NCBI GenBank assembly: GCA_963666565.1
Contig: OY762911.1
Coordinates: 992,001-1,056,000 of the forward strand
Length of the DNA: 64,000 nucleotides
DNA from: Thermoanaerobaculia bacterium
Lineage (GTDB): Bacteria > Acidobacteriota > Thermoanaerobaculia > Multivoradales > Multivoraceae
Direction: 5' to 3'
Within the stretch, counting starts at the first letter, position 1. The number at the start of each line of letters is the position of its first letter. This document shows, piece by piece, positions 18,653 to 53,330 of the stretch. Made by a program: the position numbers and the translations under genes. The notes below the pieces were generated by a model, which saw only the letters and a list, made by a program, of their open reading frames with translations, was not told the origin of the DNA and ran no database searches.

Positions 18653-18653
18653 G

Positions 18654-19502: not shown

Positions 19503-20552
19503 TCAGTTCGGAGTCTTGCTCACTCTTCCGGTCGGCACGCGGCCGCCCTCGCCGGCGCCGGCGACGACGCCGCCCGGGCAGCCGCCGCCGGGCGGAACGA
19601 CCCATTCGCAGCCCGGCGTGTTCTCCGGGCCGTCGTCGTGGCAGGCGAGGAGTGCCGCGTAGTCGGCCTTCAGGCTGCCGGGCCTGCGCGGCGGCATGAA
19701 CTCGTTCACGTGTACCTGGCCGGCTTCGAGCAGCCGGGCGGTGCGCGTCGGCGCCCGGTGGCAGTCGAGGCAGGCGTTGCCCTCGATGTGCGGCGTCCTC
19801 ATGTCCCAGTGCGTTCCGCCGACCACCCAGTAGGGCGCTTCGGGATCCACCCAGCCCGGCAGGACGGGTTCGCTCGGGTCGGACGGCAGCTTGGCGCCGT
19901 CGATCCAGGGGTCGTGCAGAAAGGCGTTGTTCTGGTGGCACTGGACGCACTGGACGCCCGGAGGCGGCGGGATGAAGGCGTCGTCGAAGGCGTCGTCGTC
20001 CGGGCCGGGGAGCTTCCCGGCGAGGACACCGTCGTCGTCGAGGTGGAGGTACTTCGCCTGTCTGAGATCGCCGATCCCGTCCGGCGACTCGAAGAAGCAG
20101 GTGGCGCCCGTGGTCTTGTTGTGTCCGATCATCTGGACGGAGGAGATGCCCTTCGCGAAGAGTTCCCGGCCGGCCGAGCGGCAGAGGTACGCCCAGACGA
20201 CGTCGTCCAGCGGGCTGCCGTCGGCGGCCTTGCCCTGCACCCTGCCGATCCGCGAGCCGACGTTGCAGTTGCCCTTGAAGTCGGGCGTGTCGCACTGGCG
20301 GTAGCCGGGGCTCTCGAAGACCTCGACGCCGTCGACGTGGATGGGGATGCGCACGCCGGCGCCGCAGTCGATCGTCGGCGGCACGCCGACGTGCGGGAGG
20401 CACATCGCGGCGTACTCGGATGCCGTCTCCGGCATCGTCTGCGCCTTGCCGCCGGGTATGCAGGCGTCCTCGGCCGTCGCCGCGCCGGCCGGCGCCACGG
20501 CCGCGAGAAGCGCAGCCGCGACGGCCAACCCTGAGATCGCTCGAAGTTCCAT
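19503..20552 (-). CDS. Secreted Cys-rich protein with two CxxCH motifs (possible di-heme cytochrome c)
   Basis: Signal peptide, CVQCH and CLDCH, GGAGG RBS. Confidence 0.7.
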   Translation of the reverse strand: MELRAISGLAVAAALLAAVAPAGAATAEDACIPGGKAQTMPETASEYAAMCLPHVGVPPTIDCGAGVRIPIHVDGVEVFESPGYRQCDTPDFKGNCNVGSRIGRVQGKAADGSPLDDVVWAYLCRSAGRELFAKGISSVQMIGHNKTTGATCFFESPDGIGDLRQAKYLHLDDDGVLAGKLPGPDDDAFDDAFIPPPPGVQCVQCHQNNAFLHDPWIDGAKLPSDPSEPVLPGWVDPEAPYWVVGGTHWDMRTPHIEGNACLDCHRAPTRTARLLEAGQVHVNEFMPPRRPGSLKADYAALLACHDDGPENTPGCEWVVPPGGGCPGGVVAGAGEGGRVPTGRVSKTPN

Positions 20553-20584
20553 CCGGTCCTCCCTCGTTGCGACCGCCAGTGTAC

Positions 20585-20610
20585 CGAACTTGTAACAGTG
20601 TCTCAACTTG
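20585..20610. promoter_or_regulatory. Putative operator copy
   Basis: ACTTG TAACA G TGTCT CAACT. Confidence 0.45.
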
Positions 20611-20646
20611 GAGTTGGCGGCATGTCGGTGTTTCTGTCGGGCGCCG

Positions 20647-20837
20647 CTGGGTGCGCGGGTCTTCCGACCCGCTGCCGGCGGAGCCGGCCAGGCAACCGCG
20701 CCGGCCGGAGGCCGGCACTATCTGTGGCTGGCGCCACGTTTGGCGCGGTCGCCGGCCTCCGGCCGGCGGTCCCTTTGTCCGGGCTGCGCCGCTCCGCGGC
20801 TTCGCCCGTGAGCGGGTCGGAAGACCCGCGCACCCAG
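20647..20837. repeat. Long REPIN between divergent genes
   Basis: Perfect 26-bp inverted REP-A ends. Confidence 0.92.
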
Positions 20838-20876
20838 CGCCGCGCACCCGGAACGCCGACGCCGCAGGGGTTGCCC

Positions 20877-20903
20877 TCGACTTGAAACGCTGTAACATGT
20901 TTC
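20877..20903. promoter_or_regulatory. Putative operator copy upstream of the TonB receptor
   Basis: TCGACTTGAAACGCTGTAACATGTTTC, close to the reverse complement of 12080-12107. Confidence 0.55.
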
Positions 20904-20936
20904 CCTTCCCTTCAAGAAACGTCCCAGGAGGCAGGC

Positions 20937-23888
20937 ATGAACCCGAAGCATCGCGACGGCCGAAGGACTCGGAAGCTCATCCTGTTGGCGTTTCTCGCCA
21001 TGGCGGTACTCGCCCTGCCGGCCGCGGCCCAGGACGGCAGCGTCTCGGGCACGGTCTACGACCGCGACGGCGGCGCCCTGCCGGGCGTCACCGTCAGCCT
21101 CCAGGACGCCGACGGCGGCGACACCGGCAAGAACGCGCAGACCGACGCCGCCGGCGCCTTCCGCATCGACGGCGTCGCCGACGGCAGCTATACGGCGACG
21201 GCCTCGCTCCAGGGCTTCCGGTCCGCCAGCGAAACGGTCGAGGTGTCGGGCGGCGCCGGTTCCGTCGAGTTCGCGCTCGGCCTCTCCGTCGTGGAGCAGA
21301 TCGTCGTCCAAGGCGAGATCGGCGAAGAGAACGTCCTCAGGCGGCCGATGACCGTTACCGGCTTCAACGAGGGCATGGTCGTCGAGCTCGGCATGAACAA
21401 CAACAACGACCTCGAAGCGCTCACGCCGGGCCTGCAGATCGGCCACCAGTCGCCCGACTCCGGCCACGGCAACCACCTCTACCTCCGCGGCATCGGCTCG
21501 CAGCGCAACCAGGAGTTCTTCCAGGCCACCGCGGTCGCCACCTACGTCGACGGCATCTACACGGACGAGCTCTACGCGCTCGAGCCCGGCAACCTGTTCG
21601 ACGTCGAGAGCATGAACGTGGCGCGCGGCCCGCAGGGAACCACCGGCGGCCGCGCCGCGATCGCCGGCGCGATCAGCTTCAACACGATCAAGCCGACCGC
21701 CCAGTTCGACGTCAACGCCCTGGCCGAGTACACCGATCAGACCTCGCAGCGCGGCGACCTCGCCATCGGCGGACCGCTCGGCGACAGCCGGGTGAGTTGG
21801 CGCTTGACGGCGGGAAGCTGGCAGGGCGAGGGCGCGCAGCCCAACATCGGCCCCGGCGGCGACTACGACGAACCGGACAACGTCCACTGGGCGCCGCAGC
21901 TTCGCTATCTCGGCGAGACGGTCGACTTCAACCTCCGCTACGCCGGCCGCGAGGACAGCGGCGCGCCCCGCACCTCGGTCGAACTGACCGGCCGCGACGT
22001 GACGACCGAATGCCTGCTGACTGGCACCGACCCGGAGGGCAACCCGACCTGCCTGTTCCCGAATCCCTTCCTCGGCGCGGCGAACCAGGCGCCGTCGGTC
22101 AGGGACTGCGATCTCAGCGATCCGAACCGGCTCATCTGCCCCGGCGACGACCTGCGCAACGTGGTCGACTACAACACGCCGGGCAACGAGGACTCCGAAC
22201 TCCAGATGGCCGTGGCCGACCTGAACGTCCGGCCCAGCCGCGGGCTCAGCCTGACCTACAAGGGCGGCTACCGGGAAACGACGGAGAACGCGCAGACCGA
22301 CACCGACGGCACCTCGCGCGTCGGCGGCCCGAACGATCCGTTCCGCGACGCGAACGGTTACCCGTTCTCCGACACGATGACGAACTACTTCCGCTACTCG
22401 GAGCAGCTTTCGCACGAGTTGCGGCTGGCCTCGAGCTTCGCCGGCGACTTCCAGTTCGTTCTCGGCGCTTTCCAGCGCGACGGGGACGAGCCCTACGACG
22501 CGCGCTTCTTCGACTTCGCCAACCCCGCGTTCAACACGAACACGCTGGCGACCTGCCAGGCGCTGCTCCCGTTCTTCGGATTGCCTCTCCTGTCGGAGCA
22601 CGGCACCACGTCGGCAGTTTCCGGTCAGGGCGTCTGGGCCTGCCCGGGCGAACTGCTCGACTGGTCGAACGCGGGCGCCATCGGCGCCTTCTCCGACGGC
22701 AACATGAACGGCCACTGGCTCGACTTCTACGGCCACTCGCAGTTCGAGACCCTGGCGTACTACGGCAACGTCGAGTACCAGGTCGGCGACAGGTGGACGC
22801 TGTTCGGCGGCATCCGCCACGACCAGGACATCAAGACCCACGTCCAGAACGACATCCGCATCGGCATCAACTTCGGCTTCGGGGTCGACCTGTGGATCTT
22901 CCGCAACGCCGCGGTGGAGGGCTTCGAGGGCAAGAACGACGCGGAGTGGAACCAGACCACCTGGAACGCGGGCGTCCAGTACTCGGCCAGTCCCGCCAGC
23001 ATGTGGTACGGCCGAATCTCCAAGGGCGGCCGCCCCGGCGGCTTCGTCGGCTTCGGCAACCTGACCGAGGTGACCTTCGATTCGGAGGAACTCATCAACT
23101 ACGAAACCGGCTGGAAGGGCCTGCTGGCCGACAACCGGCTGCAACTGGAAGCCTCCGTCTTCTACAACGACTACCAGGGCTACTGGATCAACTCCAGCCG
23201 CCTGCTGCCGGTTGAGCAGCGGATCCCCGGCGAGAGCATCTTCGAAGGCGAGATGAACACGATCGACGGAAGCTGGATCTCGGGGCTCGAGCTCAACGCG
23301 GCCTTCCGGGCCACCGACAACTTCACGATCCGCGGCTGGTACAACTACCTCGACTCGGCGATCGGAGACTTCGACACCACCTATTGTTGCGACCCCGCCG
23401 CGCCGACCGAGACGGTCGAGTTCCAGGACCGCGAGGGCAACACCTTCACGCAGGAGATCGCCAGCCTGACGAATTTCGGCGGCAACCGCATGCCGCTGCA
23501 GCCCAGGCACAAGTTCTCGCTGACCGCGATCTACGACCTCGGCAACCTCCGCCTGCTGGCCACCGCCGGCCACACGACGAAGAAGAACACGGACATCAGC
23601 AACCTGCCGAAGTACAAGATCCCCGAGTACACCCGCATCGACCTGCGGGCGATCTGGTTCACCGGGATCGAGGGCCTGCAGGTCCACGCCTTCGCCAAGA
23701 ACGTCCTCGACGAGATCGCCGTGCAGCAATGGCGGCCGAACGAAGGCTACGGTTACGACACCGGCGTGATCCGTGGTTCGCTCACCGACCAGCGCGAGGT
23801 CGGCGTGATGGCGAGCTTCCGCCTCGGCGGCCGCAAGACCCTCTACGGCCTCGGCGGAGGAATGGGCCCGTCAGCCGGCGGGAAGTAG
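20937..23888 (+). CDS. TonB-dependent receptor with carboxypeptidase-regulatory-like N-terminal domain
   Basis: AGGAGG RBS, signal peptide, EQIVVQG box, YLRGIG, VATYVDGIY, RGPQGT, NYETGWK. Confidence 0.93.
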   Translation: MNPKHRDGRRTRKLILLAFLAMAVLALPAAAQDGSVSGTVYDRDGGALPGVTVSLQDADGGDTGKNAQTDAAGAFRIDGVADGSYTATASLQGFRSASETVEVSGGAGSVEFALGLSVVEQIVVQGEIGEENVLRRPMTVTGFNEGMVVELGMNNNNDLEALTPGLQIGHQSPDSGHGNHLYLRGIGSQRNQEFFQATAVATYVDGIYTDELYALEPGNLFDVESMNVARGPQGTTGGRAAIAGAISFNTIKPTAQFDVNALAEYTDQTSQRGDLAIGGPLGDSRVSWRLTAGSWQGEGAQPNIGPGGDYDEPDNVHWAPQLRYLGETVDFNLRYAGREDSGAPRTSVELTGRDVTTECLLTGTDPEGNPTCLFPNPFLGAANQAPSVRDCDLSDPNRLICPGDDLRNVVDYNTPGNEDSELQMAVADLNVRPSRGLSLTYKGGYRETTENAQTDTDGTSRVGGPNDPFRDANGYPFSDTMTNYFRYSEQLSHELRLASSFAGDFQFVLGAFQRDGDEPYDARFFDFANPAFNTNTLATCQALLPFFGLPLLSEHGTTSAVSGQGVWACPGELLDWSNAGAIGAFSDGNMNGHWLDFYGHSQFETLAYYGNVEYQVGDRWTLFGGIRHDQDIKTHVQNDIRIGINFGFGVDLWIFRNAAVEGFEGKNDAEWNQTTWNAGVQYSASPASMWYGRISKGGRPGGFVGFGNLTEVTFDSEELINYETGWKGLLADNRLQLEASVFYNDYQGYWINSSRLLPVEQRIPGESIFEGEMNTIDGSWISGLELNAAFRATDNFTIRGWYNYLDSAIGDFDTTYCCDPAAPTETVEFQDREGNTFTQEIASLTNFGGNRMPLQPRHKFSLTAIYDLGNLRLLATAGHTTKKNTDISNLPKYKIPEYTRIDLRAIWFTGIEGLQVHAFAKNVLDEIAVQQWRPNEGYGYDTGVIRGSLTDQREVGVMASFRLGGRKTLYGLGGGMGPSAGGK

Positions 23889-23900
23889 CCACCACACACC

Positions 23901-24047
23901 CTGGGTGCGCGGGTCTTCTGACCCGCTGCCGCCGAAGGCGGCGGACAGTATCGTCGCCGGCCTCCGGCGCGAACCAGCGATCTGAACGCCACATACTGGG
24001 TGCGCCGGCGTCCCCGCCGGCATCCGGCGCGAAGCGCCGGCTTCCGG
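23901..24047 (+). repeat. Half REPIN-A (23901-~23968) followed by REP-B (23996-24047)
   Basis: Two CTGGGTGC leaders carrying different hairpins. Confidence 0.88.
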
Positions 24048-24083
24048 ACCTCTGCGGCGCTCGGTTTCGCTAACCTGCCCCGC

Positions 24084-25322
24084 GTGAAAGGCGCTCTATC
24101 CGGTTGGGCCGCCGTCCTCCTGCTCGCCAGCCTTCTCGCCGCGCCGCTCCAGGCGCAGCCGATCGAGGCCTCGAAGGGCGACGCGGCGGAGCTGATCGCG
24201 AGGATCGAGGCACCACGGGACGCGGGGTCGAGCGACGACTCCGGCAAGAGCCTCGCGGAGCTGATGGAGACGCACGGCATCCCGGCGCTGAGCGTCGCCG
24301 TCGTCGAGGACTACCGGCTGCACTGGGCCAGGGCCTGGGGCGTGGCGCACGAATCTACGGGTGCGCCCGCCGACACGGACACCCTCTTCCAGGCCGCCTC
24401 GATCAGCAAGCCGGTGTCGGCGATGGCGGTGCTCCGGGCGGTCCAGGACGGACTCTTCGACCTCGACGACGACATCAACTCGATTCTCCAATCCTGGCAC
24501 CTCCGGGACGACGCGGAACTGCTCGCGGAGACACCGGTGACGGTGCGGATGCTGCTCAGCATGACGGCCGGCACCACCGTCTCGGGGTTTCCCGGCTACA
24601 AGCCCGACGCCGAGCTGCCGACCGTCGCCGAGGTCCTCGGCCGCAAGGACGAGGAAACGCCAGCGAACACCGACCCGGTCGTCGTCGGCTGGCAGCCCGG
24701 CAGCCGCTACGAGTACTCGGGAGGCGGCTCGACCATCCTGCAGCTTGCCCTGAGCGACGCCAAGGCTGAGCCGTTCGACCAGATCCTCCAGGAGACCGTC
24801 CTCGACCCGCTCGGCATGACCCGCAGTTGCTTCTGCCAGCCGCTACCGGAGGCACTCCACGGCAACGCGGCCCGGGCCGGCGGATCGGCGGCCAGGCCCG
24901 ACGGGGACGGTGGGGCGCCCCGCGCACCCTGGCACGTCTACCCGGAACTCTACGCCGCGGGCCTGTGGACGACGCCGTCGGATCTGGCGAAGTTCCTGAT
25001 CGAGGTCCAGCTTTCACTGGAAGGCCGCTCGAACCGCATCCTCACGACCGAGTCCACCCGCAAGATGGTGACGCCCGGAGGCGTGGGCCACTACGCTCTC
25101 GGCTTCACTACCGGTGCCGACACTCCGCATCGCCCGGCGCCGCCCGGAGAAGCGGACCGCCGTTTCGGACACACGGGCGGCAACTGGGGCTTCCGCGGGA
25201 ACTTCGTCGGATCGCTCGAAGGAGGTAACGGCTATGTCATCCTGGCCAACAGCAGCGAAGCCAACCCGGTCGTCTTCGTCGAGTTGCCGACCAGAATCCG
25301 GGCCGCTTACGGCTGGGAGTAG
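24084..25322 (+). CDS. Serine hydrolase, beta-lactamase class C/AmpC-like family
   Basis: FQAASISK (SxxK), YEYSGGG, LWTTPSDLAKF, GHTGGN; signal peptide. Confidence 0.9.
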   Translation: MKGALSGWAAVLLLASLLAAPLQAQPIEASKGDAAELIARIEAPRDAGSSDDSGKSLAELMETHGIPALSVAVVEDYRLHWARAWGVAHESTGAPADTDTLFQAASISKPVSAMAVLRAVQDGLFDLDDDINSILQSWHLRDDAELLAETPVTVRMLLSMTAGTTVSGFPGYKPDAELPTVAEVLGRKDEETPANTDPVVVGWQPGSRYEYSGGGSTILQLALSDAKAEPFDQILQETVLDPLGMTRSCFCQPLPEALHGNAARAGGSAARPDGDGGAPRAPWHVYPELYAAGLWTTPSDLAKFLIEVQLSLEGRSNRILTTESTRKMVTPGGVGHYALGFTTGADTPHRPAPPGEADRRFGHTGGNWGFRGNFVGSLEGGNGYVILANSSEANPVVFVELPTRIRAAYGWE

Positions 25323-25328
25323 CCGCCA

Positions 25329-25468
25329 CTGGGTGCGCGGGTCTGCCATCCGCGCGCCCGATGACGGGCGCACGGACTGGGACGCCGGTGGTGCGGGGGC
25401 GCGCCACCAGGGTGCTGACCCGCTGCCGCCAAAGGCGGGCATCAGACCGCGCCGGCCGTCAGGCCGGC
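25329..25468 (+). repeat. REP-A whose 4-nt loop is replaced by a 73-nt double-hairpin module (C)
   Basis: GCGGGTC (25337-25343), module, GACCCGC (25417-25423). Confidence 0.85.
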
Positions 25469-26613
25469 TCCTCTTTGCGGCCGCGGCGCTCTTGACCTTC
25501 GCCTGCGCCGCGCCCCCCTCCCCCGACACCACGTTGACCGAAACCCAGCAGCTCTTCCAGGCGCGCCTCGACGAACTCCGCGCCGACCTCGGCTTCATCG
25601 GCGCCACCGCCGCCTTCGTCCTCCCGGACGGCAGCGAAGGCGTCGCCGCGACCGGCTACGCCGACCCGGACAACGACCTGCCGATGGATCCTGCGCACCG
25701 CATGCCGGCCGGCAGCATCGGCAAGACGATCGCCGCCGCCACCGCGCTCAGCATGGTCAACGAGGGCCTGCTCGGCCTCGACGACTTGGCCTCCCGCTGG
25801 CTCGGCGACGAACCGTGGTGGACCCGCCTCCCCAACCACGAGACGATGACCCTCCGCCACCTGCTCAGCCACTCGAGCGGACTGACCGATCACGTCTACG
25901 ACGAAGCCTGGCGCCGCGAGGCCCGGTCCCGCCGCGGCCCTGCCGGCGACCCCGACGCCTGGTTCGAGCCGCGGGATCTCGTCCAGTACGTCCTCGACAG
26001 GGCGCCCCTGTTCCCGGCCGGCGAAGGCTACGCCTACACCGACACCGGCTACCTCGTCGCGGGGCTCATCATGGAGGCGGCGTCCGGCGGCGCGTACTAC
26101 GACGAGGCCAGGCACCGCGTCCTCGACCGCCACGACCTCCCCCGCACGGTGGAGCAGATCGGCCGCACATTTCCCGATCTCGCCCCCGGCCACGTCGGCG
26201 AGGACAACCCGTTCTCGCTTCCCGCCAAGACCGCCGAGGGCGACGTGATGGCCTTCAGTCCGCAGACCGAGTGGACCGGCGGCGGCTACGTCTCCAACTC
26301 ACGCGACCTGGCCCGCTGGGCGAAGATTCTCTACGAGGAGCGTGCCCTCGACGGACCGTACCTGGAGGAGATGCTGAACTCCGGCTACCGCGGCGAAGAC
26401 GCCGGCGCCACTTATGGCCTCGGCGTCTACCGTGCCGGGTCGCCCCACGGCGAACTCATCGGCCACGGCGGCTGGTTCCCCGGCTGGCGCTCGACGATGT
26501 ACTACCACCGGGACTCCGGCATCGCCGTCGCTGTCCAGTTCAACCAGAACGACCTCGACTTCCGCAACCAGGTCCGCGACGTACTGTTCGCCGTCCTCCT
26601 CGGACGGCACTAA
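25333..26613 (+). CDS. Serine hydrolase/D-Ala carboxypeptidase-like lipoprotein
   Basis: GSIGK, LRHLLSHSSG, YAYTDTGY, GHGG; lipobox LTFAC. Start uncertain; the nearest upstream in-frame GTG lies in the REP leader. Confidence 0.88.
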   Translation: MRGSAIRAPDDGRTDWDAGGAGARHQGADPLPPKAGIRPRRPSGRLLFAAAALLTFACAAPPSPDTTLTETQQLFQARLDELRADLGFIGATAAFVLPDGSEGVAATGYADPDNDLPMDPAHRMPAGSIGKTIAAATALSMVNEGLLGLDDLASRWLGDEPWWTRLPNHETMTLRHLLSHSSGLTDHVYDEAWRREARSRRGPAGDPDAWFEPRDLVQYVLDRAPLFPAGEGYAYTDTGYLVAGLIMEAASGGAYYDEARHRVLDRHDLPRTVEQIGRTFPDLAPGHVGEDNPFSLPAKTAEGDVMAFSPQTEWTGGGYVSNSRDLARWAKILYEERALDGPYLEEMLNSGYRGEDAGATYGLGVYRAGSPHGELIGHGGWFPGWRSTMYYHRDSGIAVAVQFNQNDLDFRNQVRDVLFAVLLGRH

Positions 26614-26778
26614 CTGGGTGCGGGGGTCGATGCGCGGGTCGGTGCGCGGGTCTTCCGACCCGCTGCGGGCGGAGCCGCGGAGCGGCGCAGCCCGAACGAA
26701 GTAGCCGCCGGCCGGCGGCCGGCGACGATACTGTCCGCCGCCTACGGCGGCAGCGGGTCAGAAGACCCGCGCACCCAG
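26614..26778. repeat. REPIN with 12-bp tandem leader units; its right arm encodes the aminotransferase C-terminus
   Basis: Begins immediately after TAA 26611-26613. Confidence 0.92.
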
Positions 26779-28136
26779 TGGGCGGCGTCGTCGGCGGCTT
26801 CGAGAAAGCGGTCGATCTCCGCGTCGCCCATCGGGGTCGAGAGCGCGCCGAAGAGGCCCCGGGCGCCCATCAGCATGCCCCGGTTCAGCATCTCCAGGGC
26901 GATCTTCTGGATCCGCGGCGCGGCGGAACGGGCGGCGAATACGGCGCGGAAGTCCTTCGGCGGCTCGTTCCCCGGCACGACGGCGAAGAGCGAGCCGCGG
27001 CCGGTCGCGACCGCCTCGATGCCGTGCCGCCGGAGCACCTGCTGGAGTCCGTCGCGCACCCGGTCGCCGAGCCGGTCGAGCTCGTCGAAGACGTCCGGCG
27101 TCAGCCGCTTCATCGTCTCGTAGCCGGCGACCATCGTCACCGGATTGCCGTTGTAGGTGCCGCCGTGGTGGACGAGTTCGCCGTCGCGGTGGTCGAAGAC
27201 CTTCATCACGTCCGCCTTGCCGGCCACCGCGCCGACGGGGAAGCCGCCGCCGATGATCTTGCCGAGCGAGACGAGGTCCGGTTCGATTCCGAAGCGGTGG
27301 CAGGCGCCGCGATAGTCGATACGGAACGAGAGCACCTCGTCCGCGATCAGGAGAGCGCCGCATTCGCGCGTCTTCGCCCGGATCGCCGCCACGAAGTCGG
27401 CCCTCGGCGGGATCAGTCCGAGCGCCGCGGGCAGCGGATCCAGCAGCACGGCGGCCAGGTCGTCGCCGTGCTCGTCGATCAGGGCGCCGCAGACCTCGAT
27501 GTCGTTGAGCGGCAGCGTGACGACTTCCGTCTCCAGGCTCTTCGCCATGCTCGGTTCGAGCGTCGTCGCCGGCCGTTCCGACTCGCCCCAGTTCTTCGGC
27601 CGCGAACTGTCGGAAGCCTGCGCGTAGTCGTAGATGCCGTGGTAGCAGCCCTCGAACTTCGCGATCTTGCCGCGGCCCGTGGCGGCGCGCGCGGCCCGGA
27701 TCGCCAGCAGCACGCCTTCGCTGCCGGAGTTCGCGAACCGCACCTGGTCGATGTACGGGATGCGCTCCACCAGCAGCTCGGCGAGGCGGATGTCGGTCTC
27801 GGTCGGCAGCGAGAACGCCGTGCCGCTCCCGATCGTCCGGGCGACCGCCTCCGTCACCCCGGGGTGCGAGTGCCCGAGGATCAGCGAGGTGTAGTTGTTG
27901 ACGAAGTCGATCCGCTCCTGGCCTTCGACGTCCGTGACGATGCAGCCTCGCCCCGAGGCCGCGTAGATCGGGTACGGGTCCATCACCAGCGTGTGGCGGC
28001 TGTTGCCGCCGGGCATGACGTCGAGGGCGCGCTCGTAGAGCGAACGCGAGGCCGACTGCTCGCCGAGGTAGCGATCCGTGGAGCGGGGTTCGGCCGCGGC
28101 GGCGGGCCGGGTTTGCCGGTCCGTGATGTCGTTCAC
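26742..28136 (-). CDS. Class III PLP aminotransferase (glutamate-1-semialdehyde aminomutase-like)
   Basis: MPGGNSR, RFANSGSE, KFEGCYHG, LLIADEV, LGKIIGGGFPVGA and HGGTYNGNP. Confidence 0.92.
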   Translation of the reverse strand: MNDITDRQTRPAAAAEPRSTDRYLGEQSASRSLYERALDVMPGGNSRHTLVMDPYPIYAASGRGCIVTDVEGQERIDFVNNYTSLILGHSHPGVTEAVARTIGSGTAFSLPTETDIRLAELLVERIPYIDQVRFANSGSEGVLLAIRAARAATGRGKIAKFEGCYHGIYDYAQASDSSRPKNWGESERPATTLEPSMAKSLETEVVTLPLNDIEVCGALIDEHGDDLAAVLLDPLPAALGLIPPRADFVAAIRAKTRECGALLIADEVLSFRIDYRGACHRFGIEPDLVSLGKIIGGGFPVGAVAGKADVMKVFDHRDGELVHHGGTYNGNPVTMVAGYETMKRLTPDVFDELDRLGDRVRDGLQQVLRRHGIEAVATGRGSLFAVVPGNEPPKDFRAVFAARSAAPRIQKIALEMLNRGMLMGARGLFGALSTPMGDAEIDRFLEAADDAAHWVRGSSDPLPP

Positions 28137-28231
28137 CCTACTCCCTCTCCCGTTGCGGTCGGCACCGAGTCGAATGCGGGGAGCGTACAGCAGGCGCCGG
28201 CGGGCGGGCCGCTTCGCTATTGTGCTGAGCC

Positions 28232-30154
28232 GTGCATGGAGCCTGTTCCGCCTCGACCGGCTCACGGACCCGCGCGGCCGCCGCGGGTCCGGTCGCGACG
28301 GCGCTGGCGATCCTCGGGGTACTGGGCTGCCTGAGCACGGCCGCCGTGCTCCCGGCCCAGGAAGGTCCGACGCACGCCATCGCCTACTTCGGCGAGCCGC
28401 GGTACGCGGCGGACATCCCGCACTTCCCCTACGTCAACCCGGACGCGCCGAAGGGCGGTGAGATGCGTACCTGGCTGCCGGGCACCTTCAACAACGTCCA
28501 TCCCTACGCGGACATGGGGCGTACGCCGAGCTGGGCCAACTGGCGGGTCACGGTGATCACCTCCGATCGCCTGATGATGGGGTCGGAGGACGAGCTCTCG
28601 ACGCTCTACTGCCTGCTCTGCGAGACGGTCGAGGTCGCCGCGGACTACAGTTGGGTGGCTTACGCGCTGCGATCCGAGGCGCGGTGGCACGACGGCGTGC
28701 CGGTCACCGTCGATGACGTCGTCTGGACGTTCGAGACCCTGAAGACAGACGGCCCGGTCAGCTTCAAGGCGGCCTGGCGGCACGTCGAGGGCATCGAGCG
28801 TCTCGGGGAGCGCTCCTTCCGCTTCCTGCTCGGCGCCGAGGGAAGAAGCCGCAGGGCGGTGATGGAGGCGTCCGCCTTCCTGCCGATGGCGAAGCACTAC
28901 TGGCGGGACCGCGACTTCACGGCGACCAGCCTGGAGGGGCCGCTCGGCAACGGCGCCTACCGCGTCAAGGAAGTCGACCCCGGCCGGCGCCTGGTCTTCG
29001 AGCGCGTTCCGGACTACTGGGCGAAGGACCTCAACTTCAGGCGCGGCTACCACAACTTCGACCGCATCTCCGTCCTCTACTTCCGGGACATGAAGGCCGG
29101 CATCCAGGCCCTCAAGGCCCGCGTCGTCGACTACTTTCGCGACCAGGACGAGCGTGAGGTCGCCACCGCCTACGACTTCCCCGAGGTGGGCATGGGGCTC
29201 TTCAACAAGGAGACCTACCGGATGCGGATGACCTACGGGATGCACTGGTCGGTCGTCTTCAACACCCGCCGCCCGCCCTTCGAGGACATCCGCGTCCGCG
29301 AGGCGCTGACTCTGGCCTACAACTTCGACTGGGGCAACCGCGCCCTCCAGTACGGCGCGCTGCGGCGGAACACGACGTTCTTCCTGGGCTCGGAGATGGC
29401 GGCGCGCGGCCTGCCGTCGGCCGCGGAACTGGCGCTGCTCGAGCCGTTGCGGGAGCACGTCCCCGACCGCGTCTTCACGCACGAGTTCGCCCTTCCCGAA
29501 ACCGACGGCTACGGCCGCAACCGGGAGGCGCTGCTGCGGGCGGGAGAGCTGCTCGACGAGGCCGGCTGGGTCCTCCGCGACATGAGGCGCGTCGACGAGG
29601 CGACCGGCGAACCGCTGCGGTTCGAGATCATGGTCATGCTCAGGGAACACGAACGGATGATGGTCCCCTTCGTCGAGAACCTGACGCGCCTCGGCATCGA
29701 AGCGACCGTCCGCCGGATGGAGTCGAACATCTTCACGAACCGGGCGCGCCAGTACGACTTCGACATGACGATGCAGAAGATTTACACCCACCCCATCCCG
29801 GCGCCGGGCGGCATGCGCAGCTACCTGCACTCCCGGAGCGTCGCCCCACCGAACCTGTTGAACTACGCGGGCATCGGGAACCCGGCGGTCGACGTCCTGG
29901 TGGAGAAGGTGATCGCGGCCGAGACGGAAGAGGAGATGAACGTCGCCGGCCGGGCGCTCGACCGGGTGCTTCTGTGGAGCTTCCACGTCATTCCCGAGGG
30001 CGCCCCCAAGGGCCGCCATCTCCTGTATTGGGATCGCTTCGGCCATCCGCCCCTGGGGCACGAGCACCTGAACTGGACCGGCTTCCCGCAGCTCTGGTGG
30101 TTCGACGCGGAGAAGAGCGCCCGGGTCGACGCCGCTTTGGGCGAGAGCAGGTAG
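28232..30154 (+). CDS. yejA: ABC transporter substrate-binding protein (YejA-like)
   Basis: HFPYVNPDAPKGG, ARWHDGVPVTVDDV, ERVPDYWAKDL, RALDRVLLW, WWFD. Confidence 0.88.
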   Translation: MHGACSASTGSRTRAAAAGPVATALAILGVLGCLSTAAVLPAQEGPTHAIAYFGEPRYAADIPHFPYVNPDAPKGGEMRTWLPGTFNNVHPYADMGRTPSWANWRVTVITSDRLMMGSEDELSTLYCLLCETVEVAADYSWVAYALRSEARWHDGVPVTVDDVVWTFETLKTDGPVSFKAAWRHVEGIERLGERSFRFLLGAEGRSRRAVMEASAFLPMAKHYWRDRDFTATSLEGPLGNGAYRVKEVDPGRRLVFERVPDYWAKDLNFRRGYHNFDRISVLYFRDMKAGIQALKARVVDYFRDQDEREVATAYDFPEVGMGLFNKETYRMRMTYGMHWSVVFNTRRPPFEDIRVREALTLAYNFDWGNRALQYGALRRNTTFFLGSEMAARGLPSAAELALLEPLREHVPDRVFTHEFALPETDGYGRNREALLRAGELLDEAGWVLRDMRRVDEATGEPLRFEIMVMLREHERMMVPFVENLTRLGIEATVRRMESNIFTNRARQYDFDMTMQKIYTHPIPAPGGMRSYLHSRSVAPPNLLNYAGIGNPAVDVLVEKVIAAETEEEMNVAGRALDRVLLWSFHVIPEGAPKGRHLLYWDRFGHPPLGHEHLNWTGFPQLWWFDAEKSARVDAALGESR

Positions 30155-34312: not shown

Positions 34313-35676
34313 TGGAGCCACCCAGGATGAAAGCCGCACCCTCGATCCTGATCGCCGCCGTCACCGTCGTCGGCGCAGGCGCCACCACGTTCGGGCAATC
34401 CGCCGCGCCGCCCTCGCCCGACCCCGCGCGCCAGTGGAACCAGTTCCGGGGTCCCACCGGCGACGGCCGCACCCCCGCGATCGACGTGCCGATCGTCTTC
34501 GGTGAAGGCCAACTCGTGCGCTGGAAGACGCCCATCCACGACGAGGGCTGGTCCTCTCCCGTGGTTTGGGGCGAGCAGGTCTGGGTGACGACCGCTCGCG
34601 AGGACGGCACCGAGTTGTTCGCGGTCGCGGTCGACCTGGAGAGCGGAGAGATCGTGCACGACATCAAGGTCTTCGACGTCGCCAACCCCCAGGTCGCCTG
34701 GGACGGCCACAACACCCACGCGACGCCGACGCCGGTGATCGAGGAAGGCCGCATCTACGTCCACTTCGGCAGCTACGGCACGGCCGTGCTCGACACGCGG
34801 ACCGGCGAGAAGTTGTGGGAGAGGCGGGATTTGAACACCGACCACCGGGTGCGGCCGGCCTCGTCGCCCGTGCTCTCGGGCGACTCGCTGTTCCTCGCCT
34901 ACGACGGTGTGGACCGGCAGTTCGCCGCGGCACTCGACACGCGCACCGGCGAGACCCTCTGGCTCCGGAACCGCGAGGTCGCGACCGATTTCGGGGAGAA
35001 GCTCCGCGCGAAGGGGATCACGGATATCGAGAGCGTGCTGGCCGCGAAGCCGAACGACAACCGCAAGGCGTACGCCACCTCGACGCTGATCGAACACGAA
35101 GGCCAGCGGCAGCTCATCAGCCCGGCCTCGGAGGTCACGTTCGCCTACGACCCCGAAACCGGCGACGAACTGTGGCGCGTGGTCCACGAGGGCTGGGGTT
35201 GGAACCTGGCCTGTCGGCCGGTGTACGCGCATGGCCTCGTCTACTTCACCCAGGGGGTCTCCCGTTTGCTCGTGGCGGTGGACCCCGGCGGTTCCGGCGA
35301 TGTCACCGACACGCACGTCGCCTGGAGCGAGTCGCGCGGCACTCCGGAGATCCCCTCGCCGATCATTGTGGACGACCTGCTCTACATGGTCTCCGACACG
35401 GGCGGCGTGGTGGCGGCTCTTGACGCGACGACGGGGGAGCGTGTGTGGCGGGCACGCCTCCCCTCCGGAGGCGACCACTGGGCCTCGCCCGTGGCCGCCG
35501 AGGGCCGGATCTACCTCACGAGCCGCGACGGCACGGTGTCGGTGATCTCGGCGTCGCGGGAGTTCGGGGTTCTGGCGGAGAACGAGTTCGACGAGAGTCT
35601 CACCGCGTCGCCCGCCGTTGTCGATGGCGCGATCATCCTGCGCTCCGAAGGACATCTGTACCGGATCTCCGGCTAG
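34312..35676 (+). CDS. Secreted PQQ-like beta-propeller protein
   Basis: WNQFRGPTGDG, GWSSPVV, PSPII, WASPV; TGATG coupling. Confidence 0.88.
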   Translation: MEPPRMKAAPSILIAAVTVVGAGATTFGQSAAPPSPDPARQWNQFRGPTGDGRTPAIDVPIVFGEGQLVRWKTPIHDEGWSSPVVWGEQVWVTTAREDGTELFAVAVDLESGEIVHDIKVFDVANPQVAWDGHNTHATPTPVIEEGRIYVHFGSYGTAVLDTRTGEKLWERRDLNTDHRVRPASSPVLSGDSLFLAYDGVDRQFAAALDTRTGETLWLRNREVATDFGEKLRAKGITDIESVLAAKPNDNRKAYATSTLIEHEGQRQLISPASEVTFAYDPETGDELWRVVHEGWGWNLACRPVYAHGLVYFTQGVSRLLVAVDPGGSGDVTDTHVAWSESRGTPEIPSPIIVDDLLYMVSDTGGVVAALDATTGERVWRARLPSGGDHWASPVAAEGRIYLTSRDGTVSVISASREFGVLAENEFDESLTASPAVVDGAIILRSEGHLYRISG

Positions 35677-35804
35677 CGGGAAGGTGCGAGCCCGGCGAAC
35701 CGTGTCGGGTGGCCACGGCTCCCTGTAATCGGCCTGTATTCATGACCTGGACGACGATCTCCTCGGCGCACGGGCCGGCCGAGAGGATCCGGCAGCGTCA
35801 GGGC

Positions 35805-37127
35805 TTAGGCGCCGCGGTCGCGATCCCAGGCGAGGCGGCCGGCGACGAAGGCGGCGCGCACCGCCCGGTCGTCGCCGAGGAGGGCGAGCGCGTAGAGCGT
35901 GTCCTCGACGTTCCCGGACAGGGCGAGGCGATCCCGCATCACCGGCGTCGCGGCGGGATCGAGCACCACGATGTCCGCCCAGCGGCCGGGTTCGAGGCAG
36001 CCGATCTCCTCGTCGAGGCCGAGCAGCCTGGCGTTGCCCCGGGTGACGGAGTGGAAGAGGTCGTGGGCGCCGAGATGGACGCCCCGGAGCAGCGCGGCCT
36101 GGTAGGCGCCGGCGAGCGTGTGGAGCATCGAGTAGCCGGTGCCGGCGCCGACGTCGCTTCCCACCGCGATGCCGACCGGACGCTCCGGCCGCTCGAGCAT
36201 GCTCCGGTCAAAGACGCCCGAGCCCAGGAAGGAGTTCGCGGTCGGGCAGTGAACCACCGTCGATCCGGTGTCGTGGAGCCGCTGGCATTCCCGTTCGGAC
36301 AGATGGACCCCGTGCGCGAGGACGGTGCGGGGCCCCAGCAGCCCCGCCCGGTCGTACACGTCCGTGTAGTCGAGCGCCCGCGGGAAGAGCTCGCGCACGC
36401 GGGCGATCTCGGCCCGGCTCTCGCCGAGATGCGTCTGCACCAGGAGGTCGGGGCGAGCGGCCGCGAGTTCGCCCGCGAGGCGGAGCTGCCGGTCGCTGGA
36501 GGTGATGGCGAAGCGAACCGTGATCGCGTAGCGCAACCGGCCCCGAAGATGCCAGCGGGCGGCGAGCGCCTCGCTGGCGGCGACGCCGGTTTCGGGGTCG
36601 TCGCGGAGGCCTGCGGGCGCGTTGCGGTCCATCATCGTCTTGCCGGTCGCGATGGCCATGCCCCGCGCTTCGGCGGCGGCGAACAGGGCCTCGGCGGCCT
36701 GCTCGTGGACCGAGGAGAAGACGACCGCGGCGGTGGTTCCGTGCTGGACGAGCCGCTCAAGGAATACGTCGGCCGCGGCCTCGGCGCGGGCCGGGTCGCC
36801 GTAACGGAGTTCCTCGGGCCAGGTGAAGCGGTCGAGCCAGTCCAGCAGGTCCCGGCCGGGCGCGGCCAGCATCCGGTACTGGGGGAAGTGGATGTGGGCG
36901 TCGATGAAGCCCGGGAGAACGAGCGCGTCGCCGTAGTCGGTCCGGGGGAGCCGCCGGTAGCGCGCTGGCAACTCCGCAGCGTCGCCGCAAAACGCGATGC
37001 GGCCCTCCCCGTCGACCGCGACGGCGCCCCGCGGGTGGAAGCGGACCGCCTCCTCCAGGCTCGCGGCCGCCGGGTCGGCGCGGTAGGTGAGGACCGTGCC
37101 GCGGATCGTCCGCCCGCTGCGCGTCAC
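35805..37127 (-). CDS. guaD: Guanine deaminase
   Basis: PGFIDAHIHFPQ, LLDWLDRFTWPEE, GKTMMDRNAP, QTHLGE, HCPTANSFLGSG, GSDVGAGT, LGDDRAV. Confidence 0.92.
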   Translation of the reverse strand: MTRSGRTIRGTVLTYRADPAAASLEEAVRFHPRGAVAVDGEGRIAFCGDAAELPARYRRLPRTDYGDALVLPGFIDAHIHFPQYRMLAAPGRDLLDWLDRFTWPEELRYGDPARAEAAADVFLERLVQHGTTAAVVFSSVHEQAAEALFAAAEARGMAIATGKTMMDRNAPAGLRDDPETGVAASEALAARWHLRGRLRYAITVRFAITSSDRQLRLAGELAAARPDLLVQTHLGESRAEIARVRELFPRALDYTDVYDRAGLLGPRTVLAHGVHLSERECQRLHDTGSTVVHCPTANSFLGSGVFDRSMLERPERPVGIAVGSDVGAGTGYSMLHTLAGAYQAALLRGVHLGAHDLFHSVTRGNARLLGLDEEIGCLEPGRWADIVVLDPAATPVMRDRLALSGNVEDTLYALALLGDDRAVRAAFVAGRLAWDRDRGA

Positions 37128-37270
37128 CCCGGGATCAGGCGACGAGTCACGTCGAGGAACGCGTCCGTGTCCATCTCGGCCTCCAGGGCGGAGAGCTTCC
37201 GTCCCCGCTGGCGCATCGCCTCGCGCAGCAGCGATTCGGTATCGGCGTCAAGGGTGACAGTCGTTCGCAT
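37124..37270 (-). pseudogene. Internally deleted VapB-like antitoxin (48 aa)
   Basis: Same ends as 53327-53599 but lacking 42 aa in frame; GTGA overlap with guaD. Confidence 0.8.
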
Positions 37271-37306
37271 GGAAGGCACCATGATGCTTCCAGTTGGTGC
37301 TGTCAA
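37271..37306 (-). promoter_or_regulatory. Sigma70-type promoter, probably leaderless
   Basis: TTGACA-17 nt-CATGGT-7 nt-ATG; GCATCATGGTGC near-palindrome. Confidence 0.55.
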
Positions 37307-37331
37307 GCGTTCAACGCCGGCCGCCGCGCCG

Positions 37332-37501
37332 CTGGGTGCGCGGGTCTTCCGACCCGCTTGCCGCCGAAGGCGGCCTGAGAATCGTCGCCGGCCTTCGGCC
37401 GGCGGCCTTGTTCCCCGGGTTTCGCCGCTTCGCGGCTTCGCCCGGATGCGGGTCAGAAGACCCGCGCACCCAGTGGCGGGTCGGAAGACCCGCGCACCCG
37501 G
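37332..37501. repeat. REPIN (37332-37473) plus an extra tandem REP-A
   Basis: Inverted REP-A pair; spacer similar to the 15607 copy. Confidence 0.92.
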
Positions 37502-37578
37502 CGCCGCGGCGACATCGGCCTGTATCCATCCCGTTGGATCCCGGCGCTTCTTCCGTGGCTCGGTAAGGGGCTGTGCTA

Positions 37579-37602
37579 GCTTGCCAACAGCGTCTCAAGT
37601 CG
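37579..37602. promoter_or_regulatory. Putative operator copy upstream of the second TonB receptor
   Basis: Reverse complement CGACTTGAGACGCTGT matches 20878-20893 at 15/16. Confidence 0.45.
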
Positions 37603-37704
37603 GCTGTCCGCGAGACAGTTCCCCCACGAGCCGATCAGCACTCCGGTTCTCGTCGAGTGCCGGGTGCTTGAACCCATAACTTCTTCCCAGGGGGAGATCG
37701 CGCC

Positions 37705-40470
37705 ATGAGAAAGCGACTCGCGAACAGTTTGACGGCAGCCGGAATCGCGGCCTTGGCTGTCCTCGTCTGCGCCGGGGCCGCCTGGGCGCAGAACGGACCG
37801 TCCGTCCAGGGGACGATCACCGAGAAGGAATCCGGAGCCCTGCTCCCGGGCGCGGAAGTGTCCCTCAGAGACACTCCCTATCGCGCCCTGTCGGGCAGCG
37901 ACGGCCGCTACCGGCTCGACGGCGTGCCCGCGGGCGACTACACGCTCAACGTGAACTACGTCGGCTTCGAGGACTTCGAGGCCAGCGTCACGGTCGCGGC
38001 CGGGGAGACCGTCTCCCTAGTGATCGAGCTCGACGCCCGCTACGAGTTCGCCGACGAGATCGTCGTCCAGGCGGTCCGGTTCGGGCAGAGCAAGGCGCTG
38101 AACGAGCAGAAGCAGGCCATCAACATCAAGACCGTTCTCTCCGAAGAGCAGATCCAGAGCTTCCCGGACCTGAACACGGCGGAAGTCCTGCAGCGCGTCA
38201 GCGGCGTCGCCATTCAGCGCGACAACGGCGAAGGCCGCTTCGTCTCCATGCGCGGCACACCGTCGGCGATGACGAACATCACGATCAACGGTCAGCAGGT
38301 GGCGTACTCGAACAGTGCGAATCGCATGGTCGAGCTCGACGTCATCTCGGCCGCCCAGTTGACCGGCATCGAGGTGACCAAGGTTCTGACGCCGGACATG
38401 GACGCCGACTCGGTCGGCGGGGCGGTCAACCTGAAGACGCGGAGCGCGTTCGACCAGCCGGACGGCGTGACCAACTTCACGCTGGGCTTCGGCGACAACT
38501 CGATCGCCGACGGCACGCACTCGCGCTCGGCGTTCAACTACTCGACCGTGGGGGGCGCGAACGACAACCTCGGGTTCTCGATCGGCGTCAACTTCGCGCG
38601 CACGGCGGCCGAACGCCACAACAACGAGCACAAATGGGGGAGCGAGGACACCGTCGGCGGCGTCGAGATCCCCTACGCCCTGACCAACACGGAGGCGCAG
38701 TTCTCGGCCAACGACCGCGACCGCTTCGGCGCCAACGCGCGCCTCGAGGTGCGGATCAACGACAACCACAAGCTCGACTTCGCCGTGGTGCAGAACTACC
38801 GCGAAGACGACCAGGACCGCCAGATCACGCGGATTCGCTGGGACAAGGGCGACTACATCAGCCCGACGGAGGTCGAGGGCTTGCGGCTGGTGAAGTCGCT
38901 GCACGACCGGCTCGAGGAGCAGGAGATCACGGCCTACAGCGTGAGCGGGGAGCACCGTTTGGGGCTGTCCGTGCTCGACTTCAGCCTGTCGACGAGTTCC
39001 GCCTTCACCAAGAAGCCGGAAGGGCAGCTCAAGCCGGAGTTCCAGGCCCGCGGGTTCGACCTGAACGTGACCGACATCGGCAGCAAGGCGCCGGGTTGGG
39101 ATTCGACCAGGCAGGACATTCACGACAGCGGCGTCTTCGAGATCGACGCCGTGGACGAGAAGTTCGAGAACACGACCAGCACGATCGACACCGCCAAGGT
39201 GGACCTCACCCGGCCGATGCAGTGGGGCAGCGATACCGGCGAGTTCAAGCTGGGCGTGAAGGTCCGCGCGCTGCAGAAGGATCGCGCCGACCTCCGCTCG
39301 AAGTGGAAGTGGAAGGGCGACGACCTGTTCCTCGACCAGTTCGAGGCCGGGGGTACGAACATGACCGAGGGCGGCTACAACCTCGGCCAGCAGTACAACC
39401 GCTCGGGTTTCCGCTCCTTCTTCTATGGCAACCAGGGCCCGAACGGGTTCGTCGAGGAAGTGCGCAACGACGTCAATCTGGGCGAGCCGTACAACGCCGA
39501 GGAGGACATCAACAGCGTCTACGCGATGACCACCCAGGAGTACGGAAAGCTGACTATGCTGCTGGGCGTGCGGGCCGAGTTCAACGACCTCGACTACACG
39601 GCGGCCAACCTCGTGGTCAACGACGACGACGTGCTCAGGAACACGCAGGAAAGCGTGTCGCGGTCGTACGACTTCGTCTATCCCAACCTGCAGTTCCGCT
39701 ACGCCGTGTCGGACGAGACCCTCGTGCGAGCCGCGTTCACGCGCAGCATGGCACGGCCGAACTTCTGGGATTCGATGCCGTTCTCGTACACCCACACGGA
39801 CGACGAGGAGATCATCCGCGGCAATCCGTATCTCGATCCGGCGCTGGCCAACAACGTCGACTTCCTGGTCGAGCGGTTCTTCGACAACGTCGGCATCGTC
39901 TCCGGCGGCGTGTTCTTCAAGAGCGTCGACGACTTCAACTTCGTCACCGCGACGACGCAGCGCGGCGGCGAGTTCGACGGCTTCGACGTGGAGGAACCGG
40001 TCAATGGCGGCAGCGCGGACCTGATGGGCATCGAGGTCGCCTGGCAGCAGCACTGGGATTCGGGTTTCGGCATCTACGCGAACTACACGTACACCGACGT
40101 GATGAGCATCGACCTGGGCGAACAGACCGACCGGGACGACATCGACGTGCTGCCGGAACAAAGGGAGAACGTGGGCAACCTGGCGCTCATCTACGAGAAG
40201 AACCGGATCCTGACCCGGCTCGCCCTCAACATGAGCGACCGGTGGCTGAGCGAAGTGGGCGACGAGGCCGGCACGGACGAGTGGGCGGATTCGGCGATGT
40301 ACCTCGACTACTCGTTCACCTATCTCTTCGACAACGGTCTCGAGCTGTTCCTGCAGGCCAACAACCTGACGGAAGAGATCGTCTACCTCTACCGGGGCAT
40401 CGCGAGCCGGGCTTCCCAGCAGGACATCACGGGCCGGACCTTCAACGCAGGCATGCGCTGGTCGTTCTAG
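37705..40470 (+). CDS. TonB-dependent receptor
   Basis: Signal peptide, DEIVVQA, PDLNTAEVLQRVSGV, GEGRFVSMRG, GNPYLDP, terminal RWSF. Confidence 0.95.
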   Translation: MRKRLANSLTAAGIAALAVLVCAGAAWAQNGPSVQGTITEKESGALLPGAEVSLRDTPYRALSGSDGRYRLDGVPAGDYTLNVNYVGFEDFEASVTVAAGETVSLVIELDARYEFADEIVVQAVRFGQSKALNEQKQAINIKTVLSEEQIQSFPDLNTAEVLQRVSGVAIQRDNGEGRFVSMRGTPSAMTNITINGQQVAYSNSANRMVELDVISAAQLTGIEVTKVLTPDMDADSVGGAVNLKTRSAFDQPDGVTNFTLGFGDNSIADGTHSRSAFNYSTVGGANDNLGFSIGVNFARTAAERHNNEHKWGSEDTVGGVEIPYALTNTEAQFSANDRDRFGANARLEVRINDNHKLDFAVVQNYREDDQDRQITRIRWDKGDYISPTEVEGLRLVKSLHDRLEEQEITAYSVSGEHRLGLSVLDFSLSTSSAFTKKPEGQLKPEFQARGFDLNVTDIGSKAPGWDSTRQDIHDSGVFEIDAVDEKFENTTSTIDTAKVDLTRPMQWGSDTGEFKLGVKVRALQKDRADLRSKWKWKGDDLFLDQFEAGGTNMTEGGYNLGQQYNRSGFRSFFYGNQGPNGFVEEVRNDVNLGEPYNAEEDINSVYAMTTQEYGKLTMLLGVRAEFNDLDYTAANLVVNDDDVLRNTQESVSRSYDFVYPNLQFRYAVSDETLVRAAFTRSMARPNFWDSMPFSYTHTDDEEIIRGNPYLDPALANNVDFLVERFFDNVGIVSGGVFFKSVDDFNFVTATTQRGGEFDGFDVEEPVNGGSADLMGIEVAWQQHWDSGFGIYANYTYTDVMSIDLGEQTDRDDIDVLPEQRENVGNLALIYEKNRILTRLALNMSDRWLSEVGDEAGTDEWADSAMYLDYSFTYLFDNGLELFLQANNLTEEIVYLYRGIASRASQQDITGRTFNAGMRWSF

Positions 40471-52747: not shown

Positions 52748-52821
52748 CGAGTCAGAACCCTGCCCCGGTTCGCGGTCCGCTCGCCGCAGTGCGCCGTCAG
52801 GGGGCCAGCGGATAGCGGCGG

Positions 52822-52849
52822 GTCACGTCGAGAAACGCCTCCGTGTCCA
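52822..52849 (-). repeat. 28-bp direct-repeat copy of the antitoxin 3' end
   Basis: 27/28 identical to 53349-53376. Confidence 0.8.
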
Positions 52850-52883: not shown

Positions 52884-53330
52884 TCAGGTGCCCTGGTCGC
52901 GATCCCAAGCGAGGCGGACGGCGACGAACGCGGCGGTGGTTCCGTGCTGGACGAGCCGCTCCAGGAACGCGCCGGCCGCGGCCGCGGCGTGGGCCGGGTC
53001 GCCGTAGCGGAGTTCCTCGGGCCAGGTGAAACGGTCGAGCCAGTCCAGCAGGTCCCGGCCGGGCGCGGCCAGCATCCGGTACTGGGGGAAGTGGATGTGG
53101 GCGTCGATGAAGCCCGGGAGAACCAGGGCGTCGCCGTAGTCGGTCCGGGGGAGCCGCCGGTAGCGCGCCGGCAACTCCGCGGCGTCCCCGCGGAACGCGA
53201 TGCGGCCCTCCCCGTCGACCGCGACGGCGCCCCGCGGGTGGAAGCGGACGGCGTCCGCCGGGCTCGCGGCCGCCGGATCGGCGCGGTAGGTCAGGACGGC
53301 GCCGCGGATCGTCCGCCCGCTCTGCGTCAC
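52884..53330 (-). pseudogene. guaD: Internally deleted guanine deaminase copy (148 aa)
   Basis: N-terminus matches the 35805-37127 protein up to GTTAA, then joins FVAVRLAWDRD. Confidence 0.9.

Follow-up and report, generated by a model that had tools for sequence, protein, structure and literature searches.

What does it mean when a guanine deaminase gene starts within the stop codon of an antitoxin-like reading frame? This question is raised by a stretch of 64,000 nucleotides (nt) from the genome of a Thermoanaerobaculia bacterium, hereafter the window, which corresponds to bases 992001-1056000 of a single 4.79-Mb contig. In this window, a small open reading frame (ORF) resembling vapB, the antitoxin gene of the VapBC type II toxin-antitoxin (TA) pairs, directly precedes guaD (copy 1), and a second joint of the same kind, 94-95% identical, lies 16.2 kb away (copy 2). 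A first-pass annotation had suggested that guaD stands in the place of the toxin gene, either as a metabolic gene that has captured TA regulation or, more speculatively, as the effector of a TA-like module acting by purine depletion. We propose that the pair is a rearrangement scar, in which a decaying vapBC locus has been joined to an ordinary purine-catabolic guaD, and we give this reading a probability of about 0.86.

The two sides of the vapB/guaD joint

In order to identify the normal partner of the small gene, we collected its homologs and their neighbourhoods. The small protein had 264 homologs at E ≤ 0.01, the nearest being proteins of 95 amino acids (aa) that carry the name 'antitoxin' in some sources. 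A search of 61 related genomes returned 22 matches with 72-88% identity in 21 genomes of the same genus, from which 21 loci were fetched. At 20 of these loci the antitoxin stop overlaps by 4 nt an ORF of 144-152 aa starting with MIVPDANLLL, the 21st being interrupted by a contig end, and the Pfam PIN domain was detected in all three downstream ORFs that were scanned. Since its orthologs precede a PIN-type vapC in 20 of 21 loci, the small gene is, by its sequence relationships, a vapB, and it normally pairs with a PIN vapC. The description 'VapB-like' is borne out by these neighbours but not by family models: when both small ORFs of the window and one 95-aa ortholog were scanned with Pfam and NCBIfam, no family was matched, antitoxin models included. 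A profile search against the PDB gave VapB26 (E 0.088) and NikR (E 0.13), both below the significance threshold. The AlphaFold model of the 90-aa form (mean predicted local distance difference test score of 70) comprises an N-terminal extended segment followed by helices 9-22, 26-43 and 65-87; Foldseek returned no match to it at E ≤ 0.001, and the weak top matches were mostly ribbon-helix-helix proteins, which is only suggestive of that fold. The genome lacks the cognate vapC; its best match is a 40%-identical paralog at 61205-61651 that belongs to another pair. That pair, which the first-pass annotation had used for comparison, is real (vapB 61648-61893 and PIN vapC 61205-61651, sharing GTGA).

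The other side of the joint has a different history. Among same-genus genomes guaD is patchy, with 6 cases out of 36 in a first draw and none in 24 genomes of other genera (E ≤ 1e-40); a genus-wide DNA search added one further clear case, bringing the number of relatives with guaD to seven. In all seven, xdhC lies directly upstream of guaD, which closes an xdhABC-guaD operon, and the XdhA, XdhB and XdhC domains were confirmed in the genes upstream of guaD in the two genomes scanned. The junction reads ...GCGTGACG... in five of the seven, that is, the same stop/GTG overlap as in the window. Because the guaD start of these relatives already overlaps the xdhC stop, the GTGA overlap is an inherited junction of guaD itself and not a TA signature; it is by coincidence that the vapB frame ends in this TGA too. 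The overlap had been put forward as a hallmark of TA organisation, exactly as between vapB and vapC, and this argument is lost with its native occurrence at xdhC-guaD in five relatives.

Two of the seven relatives carry decayed guaD copies, one split in two frames (G023) and one without its 5' half (the 5' 180 codons, G034), and a divergent 5' end was seen in G026. In the genome of the window, one xdhABC cluster is left at 3.03 Mb, at a distance of about 2 Mb, and the gene after it is not guaD but one with a metallo-beta-lactamase fold. The remaining xdhC and this metallo-beta-lactamase-fold gene (L052 5503-6546 and 4754-5506, genome 3.034 Mb) also share a GTGA overlap; the latter gene weakly matches the Pfam model of the Anti-Pycsar protein Apyc1 (26 bits for a cut-off of 50).

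The two histories meet within a few nucleotides. Similarity to the vapB orthologs stops at CTGATC in the joint, after codon 88, and similarity to the xdhC-guaD junction starts at GTGACG: past vapB codon 88, the sequence consists of the last 8 nt of xdhC and then of guaD. Both vapC and a locally adjacent xdhABC are absent at the joint. The overlap of an antitoxin stop with the start of the guaD frame was found in both copies as announced, at 37127-37124 in copy 1 (TGA of the small ORF at 37126-37124 over the guaD GTG at 37127-37125) and in the copy-2 joint CTGATCCCGGGGTGACGC; the absence of a PIN gene next to either copy was likewise confirmed from the gene neighbours at both loci. The small ORF of copy 1 had been started at 37306, which is the TTG of the -35 box; it measures 48 aa from the conserved ATG at 37270, or 52 aa from an ATG at 37282. 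The coordinates of all features are collected in Table 1.

We then asked how widespread the joint is. A 240-nt probe centred on it was compared with 42 genomes of the genus: matches running across probe positions 115-121 occurred only in the genome of the window, in both copies, and all other matches end at position 115 or begin at 121. The conserved pairing of a ribbon-helix-helix antitoxin with guaD for which a neighbourhood search had been suggested is not there, guaD being present in the flanks of 0 of the 21 vapB loci. Exact scans for the joint pattern returned no hit in JGI metagenome contigs or in the contigs of species-representative genomes, although the genome of the window itself may have been left out of both collections.

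The protein encoded by copy 1 was then compared with known guanine deaminases. It scored 457.9 bits with TIGR02967 (cut-off 375.4) and 533.8 bits with NF006679 (cut-off 351), and its residues 21-436 align to E. coli GuaD (6ohb) with an E value of 1e-101. The motifs HIH (HxH), THLxE and GSD/GTDxGAG are conserved; we take HxH, HLxE and GxD to be the metal-binding and catalytic motifs of guanine deaminase. GuaD is 83-86% identical to the operon-borne orthologs, and its ratio of nonsynonymous to synonymous substitution rates (dN/dS) is 0.21-0.23 against two of them, compared to 0.20 between those two. By these sequence measures the enzyme is an ordinary guanine deaminase, and its gene evolves under purifying selection. 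A search of PADLOC-DB 2.0 (E ≤ 0.01) assigned no family to GuaD, to either small ORF or to the paralogous VapB and VapC. The notion of a purine-depleting effector finds nothing to hold on to in an enzyme with such scores, identity and substitution rates.

Table 1. Position of the elements of both copies and of the comparison vapBC pair in the window
Feature	Position	Strand	Evidence or remark
-35 box TTGACA, copy 1	37301-37306	minus	perfect; conserved upstream of 21/21 same-genus orthologs
Degenerate -10/palindrome CATCATGGTG, copy 1	37277-37286	minus	one mismatch to the ortholog palindrome
vapB relic ORF, copy 1	37124-37270	minus	in-frame 126-nt deletion relative to copy 2, deletion joint near 37199-37203
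vapB/guaD joint CTGATCCCGGGGTGACGC, 18 nt	37121-37138	minus	same letters in copy 2
Intact guaD, copy 1, 440 aa, GTG start	35805-37127	minus	TIGR02967 score, alignment to 6ohb, dN/dS
Copy-2 promoter	53608-53636	minus	TTGACA 53636-53631, 17-nt spacer, CACGAT 53613-53608, palindrome mutated to CATCACGATG
Orphan vapB', 90 aa, full-length	53327-53599	minus	last two codons and stop from guaD junction; ends ...RRLIPG
guaD stump, 148 aa	52884-53330	minus	internal deletion of ~885 nt joins HGTTAA to FVA...
Second vapB 3' end fragment, 35 nt (52849-52815), fused to vapC tail (52814-52797)	52797-52849	minus	
Intact paralogous vapBC, for comparison	61205-61893	minus	81-aa VapB, 148-aa PIN VapC, TTGACA-17-TAGCAT promoter

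An assembly artefact at the joint was considered and ruled out by a 134-nt contig of run X1, which bridges the joint with 0 mismatches. Among the contigs of the four runs placed on the locus, a 312-nt contig of X5 also bridges it, with 20 mismatches, and the whole stretch is spanned by none.

Origin and decay of the two copies

In order to understand how the joint arose, we compared the gene order around guaD and vapBC in the relatives. guaD lies near the same ABC-transporter gene as in the window, at a distance of 67 nt in G025 and of 1.7 kb in G035. The order in G035 is a TonB-receptor gene, orf1-orf2-orf3-xdhABC-guaD and then the ABC-transporter gene, and the stretch of about 8.8 kb between the TonB-receptor gene and guaD (orf1-orf2-orf3-xdhABC) is absent in the window; a PQQ-propeller gene was not confirmed in this G035 neighbourhood. 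In G029, vapB-vapC-orf2-orf3 adjoins the same PQQ-propeller gene as in the window, and in G001, orf2-orf3-vapB-vapC adjoins the ABC-transporter gene. The same vapBC module thus stands upstream of orf2 in one genome and downstream of orf3 in the other, which indicates that it moves within the neighbourhood. Given this synteny, copy 1 appears to occupy the ancestral guaD site. The presumed ancestor would have had the order vapB-vapC-orf2-orf3-xdhA-xdhB-xdhC-guaD; one deletion that took out everything between the 3' ends of vapB and xdhC would leave precisely copy 1.

The site of copy 2 is another vapBC locus, paralogous to the first. The match of its flanks to those of relative G027 extends to a duplicated piece from the 3' end of the neighbouring beta-helix gene. 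Ectopic recombination or template switching would later have copied the joint into this locus, at a distance of 16 kb. This copying model fits the repeat of the vapB 3' end that flanks copy 2, and the synonymous divergence (dS) of 0.15 between the copies implies that the copying was not recent. Each copy has in the meantime lost one partner through an internal deletion.

Both copies are indeed half broken, an intact guaD accompanying a truncated VapB in copy 1 and a full-length VapB accompanying a guaD stump in copy 2. In the pairwise alignment, the 126-nt deletion of copy 1 removes 42 codons and replaces residues 24-66 of the 90-aa form by one arginine, which eliminates the predicted helix 26-43 (helix 2) together with 12 of the 16 nearly invariant positions. 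Between the vapB' of copy 2 and the 95-aa orthologs upstream of PIN genes, identity is 72-88%. Its guaD, which had been counted as a second gene partner, is only the stump, made of about 136 N-terminal residues and the last 12 residues; the dN/dS of this stump (0.27) equals the background for that region and is uninformative. A vapC tail of about 18 nt, with the last codons and the stop, is the sole remnant of the cognate toxin gene.

Traces of the same decay were found in metagenomes. A 140-aa protein (P0241) is 91% identical to the stump and has the same internal deletion joint, with a further loss within the HxH motif. This protein and a 90-aa protein (P0018) each come from a 22,910-bp contig of the same source, which suggests that they are neighbours on one contig. 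Counting a 102-aa protein described below, the three metagenome proteins point to a decayed copy 2 in other organisms, judging from their sequences. The metagenome set also includes P0003, encoded on a contig of 1,094 bp, and P0121 and P0288, with a GuaD of 96% identity.

Repeats were also noted around copy 2 and around the paralogous pair. The 3' end of a large beta-helix gene (end at 52747) is duplicated with 94% identity across the copy-2 relic (52181-52480 and 53646-53945), relative G027 shows the same duplication around its intact vapBC, and an ISL3 transposase gene follows the duplication at 54240-55493 (DDE_Tnp_ISL3, 233 bits). The paralogous vapBC is flanked by two 153-nt direct repeats, 90% identical, at 60919-61071 and 62118-62270; their arrangement suggests that this pair was inserted as a cassette or that the target was duplicated.

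Promoter, expression and alternative readings

Upstream of all 21 orthologs we found TTGACA, a 17-nt spacer, the perfect palindrome CATCATGATG over the -10 and, 6-8 nt further, the ATG. The palindrome may be the operator. Neither copy in the window has it intact: CATCATGATG has become CATCATGGTG in copy 1, and copy 2 carries CATCACGATG in its place. The claim that both copies have a TTGACA-17 promoter held for the perfect TTGACA and for the 17-nt spacer, but not for the -10, which is weak: the -10-like CATGGT of copy 1 (37283-37278, 17 nt past the -35 box and 7 nt before the ATG) and the CACGAT of copy 2 each share 3 of 6 positions with TATAAT. A consensus promoter scanner (≥4/6 per hexamer), run with a terminator scan over 35600-37750, detected 0 promoters and 0 terminators. 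The spacers of the two copies differ from each other, that of copy 1 resembling the spacer of relative G029.

A GC-rich palindromic repeat similar to repetitive extragenic palindromic (REP) elements, with units like GGGTGCGCGGGTCTTC(C/T)GACCCGC, occurs in several intergenic regions of the window (37308-37508, near 23895-23990, and 25290-25400). It adjoins the relic promoter here and the vapB promoter of relative G029. Over 37308-37508 the contig depth summed for the four runs is 17,000-30,000, compared to about 50-200 in the flanks, so that the repeat must be highly multicopy.

We propose that guaD is probably expressed from the relic vapB promoter, on a nearly leaderless mRNA. No ribosome-binding site is visible in front of guaD, and in the relatives guaD relies on its overlap with xdhC; translation may therefore be coupled to the 48-aa relic ORF through termination-reinitiation, and this ORF would have taken over the former role of xdhC. 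The frame kept through the fusion and the deletion fits such a need for coupling. The truncated protein would exert no TA-type regulation and GuaD would have no toxin-like role; autoregulation by the copy-1 protein in particular is unlikely because helix 2 is missing along with 12 of the 16 nearly invariant positions. Of the suggested capture of TA regulation by a metabolic gene, what survives is that guaD stands directly behind a TA-derived promoter and ORF; regulation by the truncated antitoxin does not follow.

Several observations weigh against regarding the pair as a mere scar. The postulated ancestral gene order was found in no sampled genome. The -35 box is still perfect in both copies, and the 90-aa ORF of copy 2 is intact despite the dS of 0.15 between the copies. 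The dN/dS of this ORF against canonical orthologs is 0.13-0.34, higher than the 0.045-0.14 of canonical pairs yet far below 1, which leaves room for some constraint on the copy-2 vapB. The fusion and the 126-nt deletion are both in frame and the relic ORF reads through to the guaD start; the chance of keeping the frame is about 1 in 3 for each event and about 1 in 9 for both. Finally, two metagenome proteins (90 and 102 aa, 81-86% identical) keep the ...RRLIPG end, and the chimera has hence persisted in more than one lineage.

Some of these observations would be expected if the orphan VapB' had been domesticated as a regulator acting in trans on vapB-type promoters, including that of guaD. In favour of this idea, the intact 90-aa ORF retains all nearly invariant positions with dN/dS below 0.35, the -35 box and most of the palindrome are preserved at both loci, and the chimeric end recurs in the two metagenome proteins. 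We nevertheless hold it to be unlikely. Each palindrome carries a mismatch, unlike those of the 21 orthologs, the spacers of the two copies are not the same, the metagenome versions are changed at the nearly invariant F26 and R60 (one also has a proline in helix 1), and the arrangement is absent from the other 41 genomes of the genus. Moreover, a VapBC antitoxin as a rule binds its operator tightly only together with its toxin, and by itself it is unstable. The composite version, in which the relic promoter and the short ORF drive and couple guaD while the 90-aa VapB' represses in trans, strikes us as quite improbable; if true, it would place guanine breakdown under a TA-derived ribbon-helix-helix repressor.

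It is also conceivable that the orphan VapB' is kept for reasons unrelated to guaD, serving as an anti-addiction antidote to VapC toxins that either enter the cell or belong to paralogous pairs. The intact ORF, its dN/dS well below 1 and the presence of paralogous vapBC loci in the genome agree with such a function, and orphan antitoxins are a topic in the literature (PMC7354431, PMC12654330). However, cross-neutralisation is doubtful at the low identity of the paralogous VapB (32%) and VapC (40%), the -10 of the promoter is weakened and the metagenome orthologs carry damaging substitutions, so that we see very little chance for this explanation.

The idea of a TA-like or anti-phage module, with GuaD as an effector that depletes guanine and the small protein as its antidote, is almost certainly wrong, as it draws on nothing but gene order, the 4-nt overlap and the lack of a PIN gene, and runs against the inheritance of that overlap from xdhC-guaD, the ordinary nature of a GuaD with the length and dN/dS of its operon-borne orthologs, the absence of PADLOC matches for either protein, the breakage of one partner in each copy and the PIN toxin as ancestral partner of the small protein. 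A full-text literature search combining 'guanine deaminase' with 'antitoxin' brought up no description of such a pair among the papers listed; in PMC11651626, 'antitoxin' appears only in the references.

Relation to known systems

Reading the pair as a rearrangement scar places it between three familiar arrangements. With type II VapBC systems it shares a small ORF whose orthologs are antitoxin genes overlapping a downstream PIN gene by 4 nt, a promoter layout with a palindrome over the -10, and a predicted strand-helix-helix followed by a C-terminal helix. It differs from them in that the toxin gene is lost, the antitoxin is truncated (copy 1) or orphaned (copy 2), and the gene now downstream is a metabolic enzyme brought there by deletion. 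The second arrangement is that of orphan or pseudogenised antitoxins, in which the toxin is lost while the promoter stays, together with some or the whole of the antitoxin ORF, with point changes in the operator and a patchy distribution among close relatives; here, by contrast, the remnant runs in frame into the stop/start junction at which the last gene of another operon begins, and the resulting chimera has been duplicated. The third arrangement is the xdhABC-guaD operon, to which guaD corresponds both in sequence identity and in its GTG start, which overlaps the preceding stop by 4 nt, although xdhABC has been lost from this site.

Nucleotide-depleting anti-phage systems include dCTP deaminase, dGTPase and the RADAR adenosine deaminase. 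The resemblance of the locus to these extends only to the general idea of a deaminase acting on purines, whereas GuaD acts on the free base in catabolism, has no partner genes and matches nothing in PADLOC.

The locus is not a new kind of TA or defence system; its explanation is ordinary, and it opens no long-standing question. It does call for caution in annotation: since the overlap is inherited from a metabolic operon, a 4-nt stop/start overlap next to an antitoxin-like ORF is not evidence of a TA-type module. What the locus offers is a clean and datable case of TA decay, through loss of the toxin, in-frame truncation of the antitoxin and erosion of the operator, and an example of how a deletion can give a metabolic gene a foreign promoter together with a coupling ORF.

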